This document shows, piece after piece, positions 9,326-12,153 of a stretch of 64,000 nucleotides of DNA (positions are counted from its first letter, which is position 1; each line of letters starts with the position of its first letter). The stretch is from Patescibacteria group bacterium (lineage in GTDB: Bacteria > Patescibacteriota > Minisyncoccia > Phycocordibacterales > JACOZG01). The stretch lies in NCBI GenBank assembly GCA_038064435.1, contig JBBTTC010000004.1, forward strand, positions 3,615 to 67,614, given 5' to 3'. A model generated the notes under the pieces. That model worked only from the letters and a program-made list of their open reading frames with translations. It was not told the origin of the DNA and searched no databases. Position numbers and translations under genes: made by a program.

Positions 9326-9948
9326 GTATAACCGTTAACCGTACCGGAGAACGGCTCGGCCAAAATTTGACCAGTAGAGACGACCCTAACGATCTGGCAA
9401 CGCTGTTGCTTGTCGCGGAGGGAATTTAAAACAATACCAATCTGGGTATACCCGGCACCCCCACCCAAGGTACCACCAGTGTTGTTGGTAAAAACAGCGT
9501 CAAGCTTGGGGCGGACAAACAAAACATTAAATGCCGACAACGGAGTGGCAAGATCACAACCAGACGAACAGTTGAGTCTAGCCAAAATGTTGACTCCGCC
9601 CGGCAGATTATAAGTTTCTATGCATTCAGTATTGCCGGAACCACAGCCAGAACCAACATCATAATAATTATTTTCAGTGGGTACGAAATCAGCGTACAAA
9701 ATTAAACTATTTGCACCGCCAAAATAAATCCCGTGGGAAGGAAATTTGCCAGCGAAGGACCGAGTGCCGACGCCGTAACTTTGTGCCTGACGAATAGTGA
9801 CGGCAATCTCCTGTGCTACCAACTCCAAAATAGTTTTGTCGCGGAAGCTTGGCAGATCAGCGATCACCACACTAGTGATGACGGTAAAAATACCGAGCAC
9901 CACCAACATCTCAATGAGCGAAAAACCGCGTTTAAAAGAAAAAAACAT
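9316..9948 (-). CDS. type IV prepilin-like minor pilin / pseudopilin
   Basis: Class III signal KRGFSLIEMLVVL. Confidence 0.8.
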   Translation of the reverse strand: MFFSFKRGFSLIEMLVVLGIFTVITSVVIADLPSFRDKTILELVAQEIAVTIRQAQSYGVGTRSFAGKFPSHGIYFGGANSLILYADFVPTENNYYDVGSGCGSGNTECIETYNLPGGVNILARLNCSSGCDLATPLSAFNVLFVRPKLDAVFTNNTGGTLGGGAGYTQIGIVLNSLRDKQQRCQIVRVVSTGQILAEPFSGTVNGYTCS

Positions 9949-10681
9949 TTAGATTGAAAAAAAAGTTGAGGGCAAAACCGAGCGCCAAGAAAGGCGCAAA
10001 CGGCACCTCCGCCTTAATTGTAGAATATCGTCCCACAGCGAGCAATGCCAAGCCCACACCAGCCCCGCTCCAAAACGACCAAACCATGGCACCTAAGGCG
10101 CCCGGCCAACCAAGAAGAAAGCCGAGGGCGAGGGCGAGTTTGGCGTCGCCCAAACCAAGCCAACGGCCGCGCGAACCCGCCCACAACAGAGCAAAAAATC
10201 CGGCCCAGCCAGCGCCGGTGGCCAAATACCACCAGCGATCGGGTTGAACTAGAGCATAAATTAAGGCTAGAGCGATAAGTAAATACACCGGCCCATCGGG
10301 AATAATTTGGTGCCGCCAATCATAGACTACGATCACAACGATCAAACTCATTACCAACCACCAAAGCAACCACCACCAATTAACTCCGGCCGGGCCGGCC
10401 GGAAATTTGCTGGCCACGGCGGCAAAGAGCGCCGCCGTGGCCAGCTCCACCAGCGGGTACTGCCAAGAAATTTTAGCGCGGCAGTAACGGCAACGGCCGC
10501 CCAAAAACAAAAAACTGAAAAGTGGTACCAGATCATACCAGGCGAGTTGCTGGCCGCAGGCCAAGCACAGCGATCGGCCGGCCACCGTGCGCCCGGTATT
10601 AAGTCGGTAAACAACAACATTCAAAAAACTGCCAACAATCAAGCCAAGGATAAACGTAAATACCAAAGTCAATTCCACCAC
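9932..10681 (-). CDS. pilD: prepilin peptidase (A24 family)
   Basis: N-terminal CxxC...CxxC zinc motif and polytopic membrane domain typical of PilD. Confidence 0.85.
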   Translation of the reverse strand: MVELTLVFTFILGLIVGSFLNVVVYRLNTGRTVAGRSLCLACGQQLAWYDLVPLFSFLFLGGRCRYCRAKISWQYPLVELATAALFAAVASKFPAGPAGVNWWWLLWWLVMSLIVVIVVYDWRHQIIPDGPVYLLIALALIYALVQPDRWWYLATGAGWAGFFALLWAGSRGRWLGLGDAKLALALGFLLGWPGALGAMVWSFWSGAGVGLALLAVGRYSTIKAEVPFAPFLALGFALNFFFNLNVFFF

Positions 10682-10713
10682 CCCCTCATTCTATCGCTTG
10701 CCAGCGCTAATCT

Positions 10714-10740
10714 CACTGTCAAGGACGATCCTTGACAGTG
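10714..10740. repeat. REP-like 27-nt palindrome cactgtcaaggacgatccttgacagtg (copy 1)
   Basis: 12-bp perfect stem with 3-nt loop; identical copy at 11438..11464; overlaps the 3' end of the RAYT ORF. Confidence 0.85.
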
Positions 10741-11405
10741 GAATACTCGATCCAATCGGAAACGAATTCCTGAAACTCATGCGCTTGATTAAAGTAATCT
10801 GGAAAATTTTTGTTGCCCGACAAGATTGAATCCGATGGTCGGGGCCTATCTCTATAGTAGGCGTAACTTGAATATTCATATTTATCAAGAAACTGTTGAG
10901 CAAATCTGGCGTCAATTATTATCTTGCTCTCCCAATTATGCGGATCAACTGTTTTCACGGGATTAAGATGAATATACGCAAAAAGATATTTAAGATACTC
11001 GTTATTATCAATATGGCTAGCTTTAAAAGTACCCTCGAACAAACTACCGCTTCGATTCTGCTTTTTATTGAAGTACATCGAGTATCCAGTTAAAAGCTTT
11101 TTCATAAAAATTGTCACACCATTATCGTCTTTTGCCCTTACCAATAAATGAAAATGATTGGGCATTAAACAGTAGGCCCCAATATCAACCATTTTTTCGC
11201 CGAACGATCTTGACCACAGATGGCTAATTGTCAAGGACGATCCTTGCCAGTCGCTGAGATGCACTGTTTGACGAAAATTTGCCACATGAAGCAAAACAAG
11301 AAAGCGAAGGTAGTCGCCATGGCCTAAAAATATTTGCCGACGATCGGTACCGCGATTGTAGAGATGATAATACTGGTCAGTAGCAAAAGCTGTTTTTCTT
11401 TGCAC
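10719..11405 (-). CDS. REP-associated tyrosine transposase (RAYT, IS200/IS605 TnpA-like Y1 HuH)
   Basis: HuH motif YCLMPNHFHLLV and conserved Tyr region; flanked by REP hairpins. Confidence 0.8.
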   Translation of the reverse strand: MQRKTAFATDQYYHLYNRGTDRRQIFLGHGDYLRFLVLLHVANFRQTVHLSDWQGSSLTISHLWSRSFGEKMVDIGAYCLMPNHFHLLVRAKDDNGVTIFMKKLLTGYSMYFNKKQNRSGSLFEGTFKASHIDNNEYLKYLFAYIHLNPVKTVDPHNWESKIIIDARFAQQFLDKYEYSSYAYYRDRPRPSDSILSGNKNFPDYFNQAHEFQEFVSDWIEYSTVKDRP

Positions 11406-11437
11406 AAAATAATTTTAACACCTCCCTATCGATAAGT

Positions 11438-11464
11438 CACTGTCAAGGACGATCCTTGACAGTG
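11438..11464. repeat. REP-like 27-nt palindrome (copy 2, identical)
   Basis: Exact repeat of 10714..10740, upstream of the RAYT gene. Confidence 0.85.
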
Positions 11465-11480
11465 GGCGCAGGAAAACAAA

Positions 11481-11504
11481 AACCCCGTGAGGGGTTTTTG
11501 TGGC
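11481..11504. terminator. bidirectional intrinsic terminator-like hairpin
   Basis: aaaaaccccgtgaggggttttt: GC stem with A- and T-runs on either side. Confidence 0.5.
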
Positions 11505-11554
11505 TGTGTCAGGACAGTGCGCTCGTGTGTCCGAAAGGACGGTCCTTGACAGTC
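11500..11554. repeat. degenerate REP-like elements
   Basis: gtcaggacagtg ... aaggacggtccttgacagtc, partial matches to the REP consensus. Confidence 0.5.
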
Positions 11555-11570
11555 AACGGCTAGGATAGTT

Positions 11571-12047
11571 TTAGGAACAGGAAGCAGCCGCAGCGCCACC
11601 TCCAATGGCCGCACCGGCTTTGGCTACACCAGCACTATTAACACACCATGATGTCGTATCTGGTAGGGTAGCCGAGACGGCCCAAGATGATGCCGCCGTT
11701 CCACCAGCAGCAGCCGTAAGATCACTGGATACACACTGAGCATCAGCATTAGCGTACGCGCCCTCTACGGCCACAATAGCTTGATTGATGTTGGTGTCAG
11801 CAAACAGAGTACTTGCTGTCGCCGCGCAATCGCCCAAATCGAAATCGGTGCCATAGCTTGTATTGTTGTCATAAAAAATCTCGGCTGAAGTCCTGATGCC
11901 AGCCATGTTTCCCTTAATAGCCCCGATGGTGCCTTTCTGGCGTGCTGTGTTCAAACTAGCCAGCACAATACCCGACAGGATGCCGATGATAGCAATAACG
12001 ACCAGAAGCTCGATGAGGGTAAAACCTCGTTTATAATTCTTACTCAT
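11571..12047 (-). CDS. type IV pilin (major pilin candidate)
   Basis: Class III signal KRGFTLIELLVVIAIIGIL; about 158 aa; C-terminal SWCVNS...C loop; sits between pilC and pilD. Confidence 0.8.
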   Translation of the reverse strand: MSKNYKRGFTLIELLVVIAIIGILSGIVLASLNTARQKGTIGAIKGNMAGIRTSAEIFYDNNTSYGTDFDLGDCAATASTLFADTNINQAIVAVEGAYANADAQCVSSDLTAAAGGTAASSWAVSATLPDTTSWCVNSAGVAKAGAAIGGGAAAASCS

Positions 12048-12153
12048 TATTTTCTTGAAAAACTTACTATTATCTACGACCAAATTGTTAATAAATGACG
12101 GCGTTCATTATAAACCCCCGCCCCAAACTGGCCAAGCGACCTGTGGATAACCA

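Follow-up and report, generated by a model that had tools for sequence, protein, structure and literature searches.

To our knowledge, repetitive extragenic palindromic (REP) sequences and their partner REP-associated tyrosine transposases (RAYTs) have been studied almost entirely in the Proteobacteria, where the repeats number in the hundreds. The unit known as the REPtron is a RAYT (TnpAREP) gene with flanking REPs, as in Escherichia coli YafM/RayT (PDB 4ER8), and its named sources are Nunvar 2010, Ton-Hoang 2012, and Bertels & Rainey 2011. Here we describe a RAYT-like HUH/Y1 gene and the hairpins around and inside it, located between the major pilin gene and pilD in a 64,000-nt stretch of DNA (the window) from a Patescibacteria group bacterium, an ultra-small groundwater bacterium (contig JBBTTC010000004.1, assembly GCA_038064435.1). 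On balance, this locus is probably a REPtron- or TIRtron-like module in which a class-2 Y1 HUH endonuclease gene (H84/H86, Y144) has been kept together with four recognition hairpins of its own, and this reading is supported by the fold and motifs of the protein, the set of hairpins, their conserved positions, the agreement of stems within each locus, the sparse cognate extra copies, and the divergent paralogues.

Class 2, the RAYT side of the TnpAY1 family, is defined by the motif Y---NP (Quentin et al. 2018, PMC6006769). Within this class, subclass 2.1 (Bertels group 1) is characterised by NH[YF]H, F in place of the conserved W, Y[IV]HLNP and an SS-containing extension in proteins of ~238 aa, and has been reported without REP-like sequences nearby, while the subclass 2.4 genes of Cyanobacteria and Bacteroidetes have REPs in frame inside tnpAREP (PMC6006769). 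REPs flank RAYT genes and their ends can supply stop codons, and the TIRYT genes have terminal repeats on both sides, which may be self-complementary and may extend into the gene ends (Di Nocera et al. 2013, PMC3733652). The gene, its motifs and the four hairpins of the window locus are as follows (coordinates are those of the window).

10719..11405, minus strand: RAYT-like HUH/Y1 gene, 228 aa with a GTG start, containing YCLMPNHFHLL and kept at full length in homologues.
11148..11156, minus strand: codons of the HUH motif H84-F85-H86 (CATTTTCAT on the minus strand).
10974..10976, minus strand: codon of the predicted catalytic tyrosine Y144 in the YIHLNP motif (the class-2 Y---NP).
11437..11465, no strand: 5' cognate hairpin with a 12-bp stem and 3-nt loop, 33 nt upstream of the start codon (centre 46 nt upstream).
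10713..10741, no strand: 3' cognate hairpin lying across the stop, holding the TGA of the open reading frame (ORF; 10719-10721) and ending 31 nt before the pilD start codon.
11225..11253, no strand: internal in-frame hairpin copy with an identical 18-nt apex and degenerate outer arms, coding for W53-Q-G-S-S-L-T59.
11527..11555, no strand: pilin-proximal degenerate copy directly after the pilin stop codon, with a clear core AAGGACGGTCCTTGACAGT at 11535-11553.

An earlier note on this DNA had proposed a 228-aa HuH Y1 transposase with YCLMPNHFHLL, and this ORF was confirmed with a Pfam Y1_Tnp score of 39.2 bits against a cutoff of 23. In an alignment of 25 homologues, end to end with the 228-aa product, 45 columns are invariant and include H86, Y144-x-H-L-N-P (Y144, H146, L147, N148 and P149) and S179-S180, and H84 is at least 90% conserved. 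NHFH, YIHLNP and YEYSSY are invariant or nearly so, and the C-terminal extension carries a conserved SS motif. Public gene calls for the ORF start at M72 and give a protein of 157 aa. Because the 71 residues upstream of M72 are conserved in all of the aligned homologues (R3, Y13, H14, R18, G19, D31 and others are invariant), we regard the longer 228-aa frame as the real one, and the deposited 157-aa annotation probably lacks the true 5' end of the gene.

A search of 5.8 billion proteins identified more than 7,900 homologues, nearly all of the named ones from Patescibacteria (Paceibacteria, Vogelbacteria, Yonathbacteria and others) and annotated as nothing more than 'transposase', and an exhaustive search of representatives at 50% identity identified 258 clusters at E ≤ 1e-30 and 5,280 at E ≤ 1e-10. 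We found no paper pairing RAYT or REPIN terms, or 'REP-associated tyrosine transposase', with Patescibacteria or Candidate Phyla Radiation (CPR) names. The suggestion that a RAYT/REP system in a CPR-like genome is notable thus holds for the literature but not for the sequence data, in which the gene family is very common in Patescibacteria.

The AlphaFold2 (AF2) model of the 228-aa protein is confident (predicted local distance difference test score, pLDDT, 89; predicted template modelling score, pTM, 0.87), and in a Foldseek search its top PDB match was E. coli TnpAREP with a REP hairpin (4ER8; E = 2e-6, template modelling score 0.66 on the target), with the TnpA proteins of IS608, ISDra2 and IS200 as second-tier matches at E ~1e-3. 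The structure model was needed for this link because sequence searches of the PDB were uninformative, returning one spurious Cas11c match and nothing else for the single protein, and ISDra2 TnpA alone at E = 0.13 with the family profile. The C-terminal 75 aa are modelled as short helices, and Pfam gave no second domain (Bac_DnaA_C, HTH_23 or HTH_28-like) at E ≤ 0.1, no fold search having been made of the C-terminus alone. When the protein was compared with the RAYT subgroups, to which the earlier note had proposed aligning it, class-2 motifs were found, and NHFH, LFEG, YIHLNP and the length of 228 aa fit TnpAY1 subclass 2.1, a placement made on motifs, by eye, against Table 1 and the text of PMC6006769. 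The class-2 motif YIHLNP, the SS extension and 4ER8 as the best structural match support a RAYT-like rather than an IS200-like protein.

The flanking palindromes are as similar as had been claimed. The sequence CACTGTCAAGGACGATCCTTGACAGTG (27 nt) is found exactly at 10714-10740 and 11438-11464, and the identity between the two copies extends to 29 nt (29/29). Folded as DNA, each has a free energy of -12.7 kcal/mol (z = -5 to -6.5) and none of 200 shuffles folds as well. A diverged in-frame copy inside the ORF had also been predicted and is present, being 86% identical to the flanking hairpins with a weak fold (5-6 bp paired, z = -0.5), and in the AF2 model it encodes a lower-confidence surface loop between helix A and strand 2, upstream of HUH. 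The degenerate copies suggested for 11500..11554 survive in part, with 11535-11553 matching 95% of the 19-nt core and 11504-11519 being at best a hairpin fragment, and the 11500-11554 region as a whole folds no better than shuffles. Rfam has no match in 10400-11800, and the terminal inverted repeat (TIR) motif GGGGWSAS is absent at the window locus.

We then compared the window with 80 homologue loci from Paceibacteria, fetched from one-genome-per-species collections at 43-65% protein identity and scanned by script. In most of the 80, one perfect hairpin has its centre 30-60 nt ahead of the start codon and a second lies at the stop codon or immediately beyond it; about half have a third, centred 155-205 nt into the ORF, so that a three-hairpin layout at ~-45, ~+170 and the stop codon recurs across the family. 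By strict criteria, a hairpin is common to at least two of the three zones in 58 of 81 loci and the internal copy is found in 30. The stems vary by locus (TGTCAAGG, CCAAGG, CATAGG, TGGGAGG in L013, GTGAAGG, CAGGAAGG, CCGAGG and others) and the copies within a locus agree: the same 7-nt arm, allowing one mismatch at most, is found in 77% of upstream/end, 67% of upstream/internal and 72% of internal/end comparisons within loci, compared with 13% between loci. Among 53 upstream hairpins 91% of cells pair, a percentage biased by their selection for pairing, and compensatory (both-side) change is seen at nine of the 12 stem positions. The only bases that never vary in these 53 hairpins are those of the apex, AGG-N5-CCT, and neither this constant apex nor the constant position is affected by the selection. 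The loop of 3-5 nt has the same sequence in all copies of a locus. The window copy is a typical member of the family and no oddity.

The closest homologues have the peptide HLSDWQGxSL in common at the internal site, and we considered whether the internal copy might be a protein motif and nothing else. We rejected this on the evidence of the more distant loci, where the internal copy changes with the hairpins flanking it, following those of its own locus, and what is conserved is the DNA palindrome. The in-frame internal copy is a trait conserved in the family and no curiosity of the window gene.

Several further arrangements were noted among these loci. In L046, L032, L011 and L039, the copies of one locus have the inner 6-7 bp and the loop in common while the outer pairs differ from copy to copy and stay complementary, which suggests copying of the apex alone, or else extension or repair of each palindrome with one arm as the guide for the other. 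In L022, L078, L015, L024, L065, L074, L077 and L079, two inverted hairpin copies lie 2-8 nt apart and form composite stems of 18-27 bp, as REPIN-like doublets beside the gene. In L007 (9651-9800 and 10046-10072), about six tandem half-hairpin repeats (TTTAGCC[TA]C[CT]GGC[AG]AGG..) are piled up downstream of the pilin gene, two hairpin types (TGTCAAGG and TGGCGAGG) coexist, and the internal in-frame copy is a chimera with one arm of each.

The window contains a single family gene, with no second found in its 64 kb. The two to four paralogues that some genomes hold all keep the same hairpin layout; identity between paralogues of one genome runs from 30 to 63% (63% being the maximum), and each has its own hairpin variant. 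Copies of a locus's own hairpin arm more than 300 bp from the gene number 18 in 848 kb of the fetched DNA (a count with a 6-nt core gives 27 such copies), where the arms of other loci lead one to expect 0.4, and the density is about one per 30-50 kb.

We also scanned metagenome sequences for a single stem variant, the commonest, TGTCAAGG-N5-CCTTGACA, and the figures given here are those among the matches listed (120 stretches). These contained 141 hairpins, 37 of them linked to a family gene and 63 solo (no family gene in the fetched DNA), with 41 so close to the end of a contig that they could be assigned to neither group. Solos and gene-linked copies are alike: both have longer stems and a 3-nt loop closed by a base pair, and their loop sets are the same. 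Viral contigs served as the negative control for this pattern; no family gene was found in those searched, and the hairpin pattern was at chance level and without the family features, save for one unrelated recurrent phage palindrome. This palindrome, ATATAGTGTCAAGGATATTCCTTGACACTAT, fits the search pattern and is found in the viral stretches L213, L215, L216, L220 and L222 (IMG/VR) as well as in metagenome stretches L106, L157, L175, L185 and L206, and it appears to belong to phage and not to the RAYT-like family.

Among the matches listed, 46 solos were of high confidence, 20 inside ORFs of at least 150 aa and 19 intergenic, and the solo-bearing ORFs are real genes (NAD-ligase, GatA, KsgA, RNase HII, Dus-like, RNase R-like and topoisomerase-like). 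When aligned to homologues, many of these genes have insertions of 4-9 residues exactly at the hairpin (e.g. GatA, KsgA, Dus and the RNase R-like gene), and in the NAD-ligase the hairpin replaces an equal length of sequence. In-frame TGTCAAGG-N5-CCTTGACA hairpins were seen in L088, L102, L105, L111, L118, L126/L196, L133, L154, L160 and L169, where they are read as xSRxxLDx or CQGxxLT, and a cysteine desulfurase-like gene is among the hosts.

How far the locus resembles the REPtron can now be stated more fully. The HUH/Y1 fold, the class-2 Y---NP motif, the best structural match and the possession of its own flanking palindromes are shared, as are the low-copy gene, the divergent paralogues each with its own repeat variant, the inverted doublets in relatives, and the repeats in or at the gene ends. 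It differs in that the window family has no GT[AG]G foot, an invariant AGG-N5-CCT apex and perfect unbulged stems, in the tiny copy number seen here compared with dozens to hundreds, in hairpins fixed at ~-45, ~+170 and the stop codon throughout the family, in scoring below the NCBIfam equivalog cutoff, and in its Patescibacteria host. The likeness to subclass 2.1 and the TIRYTs lies in NH[YF]H, Y[IV]HLNP, F for W, the SS extension, the length of ~230-240 aa, and the terminal repeats (TIRYT), but here hairpins are the rule, no Bac_DnaA_C or HTH domain is found by Pfam, and GGGGWSAS is missing. With subclass 2.4 it has in common a cognate palindrome inside the transposase ORF that leaves the frame intact and encodes a peripheral loop; however, the insert is at codons 53-59, upstream of HuH (84-86), while in subclass 2.4 it lies between HuH and Y, it occupies one conserved position and not variable ones, and the motif is YIHLNP and not YIxNNP.

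Two more distant comparisons should be made. The TnpA elements of the IS200/IS605 group (IS200, IS608 and ISDra2) are similar in the size of the unit, the Y1 HUH enzyme, the hairpins near both ends and the inferred cleavage guided by hairpins in single-stranded DNA, but have Y---Q where the window protein has Y---NP, and their TnpA of ~150 aa is ~80 aa shorter than the 228 aa found here. Their copies are ~99% identical per genome compared with 30-63% here, no tnpB is present here, and the perfect hairpins identical at both ends contrast with imperfect left-end and right-end pairs. The Rickettsia palindromic elements (RPEs) and intragenic REPs are likewise short palindromes placed in frame in housekeeping genes, in a small-genome bacterium, where they add surface-loop residues, but RPEs are ~100-150 bp with no link to a Y1 transposase, whereas the inserts here are 12-27 nt and match the hairpins that flank RAYT-like genes. 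The separate features all have precedents and it is the combination that differs: subclass-2.1-like motifs with repeats, no GTAG foot, an AGG-N5-CCT apex, three fixed sites that change in step, very low copy number, and a Patescibacteria host.

By analogy with TnpAREP and the IS608-type enzymes, for which the mechanism is established, the enzyme of such a module would bind the hairpin extruded in single-stranded DNA and would cut and rejoin near it. The apical 17-19 nt would thereby be copied or converted from site to site, with a new copy seeded now and then, and such copying would keep the hairpins around and inside the gene matched to the specificity of the enzyme. The gene itself would be a low-copy resident, in the window genome one that lies on the read-through path from pilin to pilD.

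A number of observations weigh against the reading of the locus as a REPtron- or TIRtron-like module. The GT[AG]G foot is absent, the foot in the window reading (T)CACTG... and varying between loci, and the 228-aa protein scores 44.4 bits against the NCBIfam NF047646 REP_Tyr_transpos equivalog cutoff of 80. No other copy of the 27-nt palindrome is found at three mismatches or fewer in the 64 kb (shuffles expect 0.00), and there are no hairpin copies outside the locus in the remaining ~63 kb of the window, which leaves a REP population in the source genome putative. Most of the far copies across the family are within 2 kb of the gene, and some of the solo matches are chance or the unrelated phage palindrome (five metagenome solos). 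The ~50:50 orientation of the loop is unexpected for strand-specific recognition of single-stranded DNA, and the fixed positions of the hairpins suit cis-acting gene sites or element ends no less well than they suit a scattering repeat. The REPtron identity given to the locus in the earlier note therefore stands as regards the RAYT-like protein with its own flanking palindromes, and does not as regards the GT[AG]G foot and the NCBIfam cutoff, with no high copy number seen in the window. The same note had named, as the sign of an ordinary IS element, a 27-mer found only here together with an ORF that groups with ordinary IS200 TnpA: the 27-mer is indeed unique in the 64 kb, with no exact match to the 19-nt core of the hairpin in 185,579 representative genomes, but the ORF does not group with IS200 TnpA.

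The surroundings of the gene bear on the alternatives to this reading, and the neighbouring features are as follows.

11571..12083, minus strand: major pilin gene (N_methyl), the upstream neighbour.
9932..10681, minus strand: gene for the prepilin peptidase PilD, the downstream neighbour, with its start codon 37 nt after the RAYT-like stop.
11476..11501, minus strand: intrinsic-terminator-like hairpin of the pilin transcript (ACAAAAACCCC-tcac-GGGGTTTTTGT, then a T-run), with an 11-bp stem, between the degenerate copy and the 5' hairpin.
11412..11440, minus strand: promoter-like site GTGACT-17-TAAAAT with extended TG, identified by consensus match only, whose start overlaps the outermost bases of the downstream arm of the 5' hairpin.
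11417-11424, minus strand: Shine-Dalgarno sequence GGGAGGTG.

The terminator-like stem was not listed by the consensus scan, which gave a weak promoter-like match at 10716..10688 ahead of pilD. The candidate promoter at 11412..11440 would put the start of the transcript within a few bases of the GTG start codon, and pilD probably depends on read-through transcription because its start lies only 37 nt past the RAYT-like stop. We note that the downstream arm of the 5' hairpin (within 11412-11446) contains the sigma-70 -35 consensus TTGACA, the site given by the scan using the adjacent GTGACT, and that a perfect 15-nt inverted repeat (GCTGGCCACGGCGGC / GCCGCCGTGGCCAGC, 7 nt apart) is present inside the pilD coding region at 10409-10445.

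The arrangement is the same in all nine of the contigs read that carry the window protein, which come from different samples (six were examined in detail). The earlier picture of an insertion splitting an otherwise contiguous operon is misleading, as comparison of the pilus locus in relatives at the genus level placed a homologue at the same pilin-pilD junction in six loci (L007, L010, L035, L022, L045 and L211). Because the PilB, PilC and PilT proteins of these loci are just 54-85% identical to those of the window, the site has been occupied for a long time, or repeatedly. The gene is absent from two equally close relatives, L207, in which the operon ends after the pilin gene, and L209, in which the gap holds ~3.5 kb of other genes; no clean empty site was found, the operon being broken there in L207 and the site filled by other genes in L209. 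L207 keeps a hairpin remnant (GCCCTCCGGCAAGGTTTAACCTCCC) directly after the pilin gene, with the same left arm in L007, L010 and L211, and the apex of the pilin-proximal remnant matches the cognate hairpin of the same genome in L211 and L010, the window differing by one loop base. L207 is also the closest sister of L211 (PilT 90% identical) and is without both the RAYT-like gene and the adjacent pilD.

Simple vertical inheritance, which the conserved synteny might suggest, was rejected, as pairwise identity matrices showed RAYT-like identities incongruent with those of the Pil proteins. L007 and L010 are 84-88% identical in PilB, PilC and PilT and 59% in the RAYT-like protein; for the window and L007, which have nearly the same hairpin, the figures are 71% in PilC and 65% in the RAYT-like protein, and the window and L211 are 73% identical in PilC and 53% in the RAYT-like protein. 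This incongruence would point either to very uneven rates or to replacement or exchange of the module at the junction. A functional link to type IV pili was set aside, since pilus genes are nearby in 12 of the 81 loci, several of them orthologous, and none are shown in the other 69. Near the pilus genes we also saw, in L049 (1178-3340), a RAYT-like gene (1797-2456) between a truncated pilD (PilD residues 4-189) and a full pilD (4-247), a partial duplication of the neighbour, and in L211 (7215-7616) a PemK toxin gene between pilC and the pilin gene. Also of the toxin-antitoxin kind, ParE/RelB-like genes were found near the end of the source contig in L001 (20178-20474).

In the main competing explanation, a possibility that we take seriously without thinking it likely, the locus is a compact autonomous insertion sequence (IS): a ~750-bp hairpin-bounded cassette that would move as a unit in the manner of IS200, by means of a class-2 Y1 transposase, and land preferentially beside existing cognate hairpins. 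Such preferential landing would explain the repeated occupation of the pilin-pilD site, and the incongruent identities at this site (59% against 84-88% for L007 and L010), the absence of the gene from L207 and L209, and the hairpin remnant left after the pilin gene in L207 are all in its favour. So are the hairpins at fixed distances outside the start codon and at the stop in most of the 80 loci, which bound a unit the size of IS200, the genomes with two to four paralogues in which duplication carried the same hairpin layout along, and the many contexts in which family members are found, 69 of the 81 loci showing no pilus gene. However, no genome has near-identical copies (63% at most), the nine contigs from different samples have the same arrangement with no polymorphism seen, and the window holds one copy in 64 kb with no clean empty site found among the relatives. 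The class-2 features are moreover linked in published surveys to low-copy, non-IS behaviour, and among the matches listed the solo hairpins outnumber the gene-linked ones (63 compared with 37).

An explanation which we consider unlikely is that the hairpin-bounded cassette with its third, in-frame site is an undescribed minimal Y1 element of ultra-small bacteria, whose enzyme would swap only the apical 17-19 nt between hairpins ('tip conversion') and home to cognate hairpins that already exist. Tip conversion and homing would together explain the concerted evolution of the copies within a locus with outer stems that are site-specific yet complementary, the repeated occupation of the pilin-pilD site by different lineages, and the short in-frame palindromes seeded in the housekeeping proteins of genomes with almost no intergenic space.

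It is rather improbable that the protein has been domesticated for DNA or RNA binding and moves no more, with the palindromes acting as operators or RNA stem-loops that would control its own synthesis and the read-through from pilin to pilD and the minor pilin genes. Several observations would suit regulation: the hairpins keep their places with respect to the start and stop codons, the loop orientation of ~1:1 is as expected for a symmetric double-stranded operator or an RNA stem, the promoter-like site starts within the outermost part of the 5' hairpin (downstream arm), and the module stands directly after the pilin terminator and 37 nt ahead of the pilD start in a placement kept in several genera. 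Against this, the catalytic HUH and Y residues vary little or not at all in the family, most members are outside pilus operons, and Rfam holds no known RNA element for the region; the cognate copies away from the gene, in unrelated genes and as inverted doublets, cannot be explained by the regulation of one operon. We can dismiss as highly improbable the view that this is a relic in decay, its transposase gene inactive and its repeats left over with no function today, as suggested by the public annotation of 157 aa and by the degenerate internal and pilin-proximal copies, since the 228-aa frame is open and aligns end to end with 45 invariant columns (including some within the first 71 aa), the flanking hairpins are identical at 29/29 positions, and the AF2 model is confident.

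In a large family of Patescibacteria, the RAYT/REP partnership is reduced to a minimum of one gene and a few fixed hairpins, one of them intragenic. Because hairpin and protein vary together across hundreds of loci, the family is a natural data set on how Y1 HUH enzymes read their hairpins, and because the motifs of the window family match subclass 2.1, the conclusion that this subclass has no repeats may need revisiting. It follows for annotation that 'transposase' in Patescibacteria genomes should not be taken to mean an active IS. To judge from the in-frame insertions in the ligase, GatA, KsgA and other core genes, such elements may have a part in shaping proteins where non-coding DNA is very scarce.

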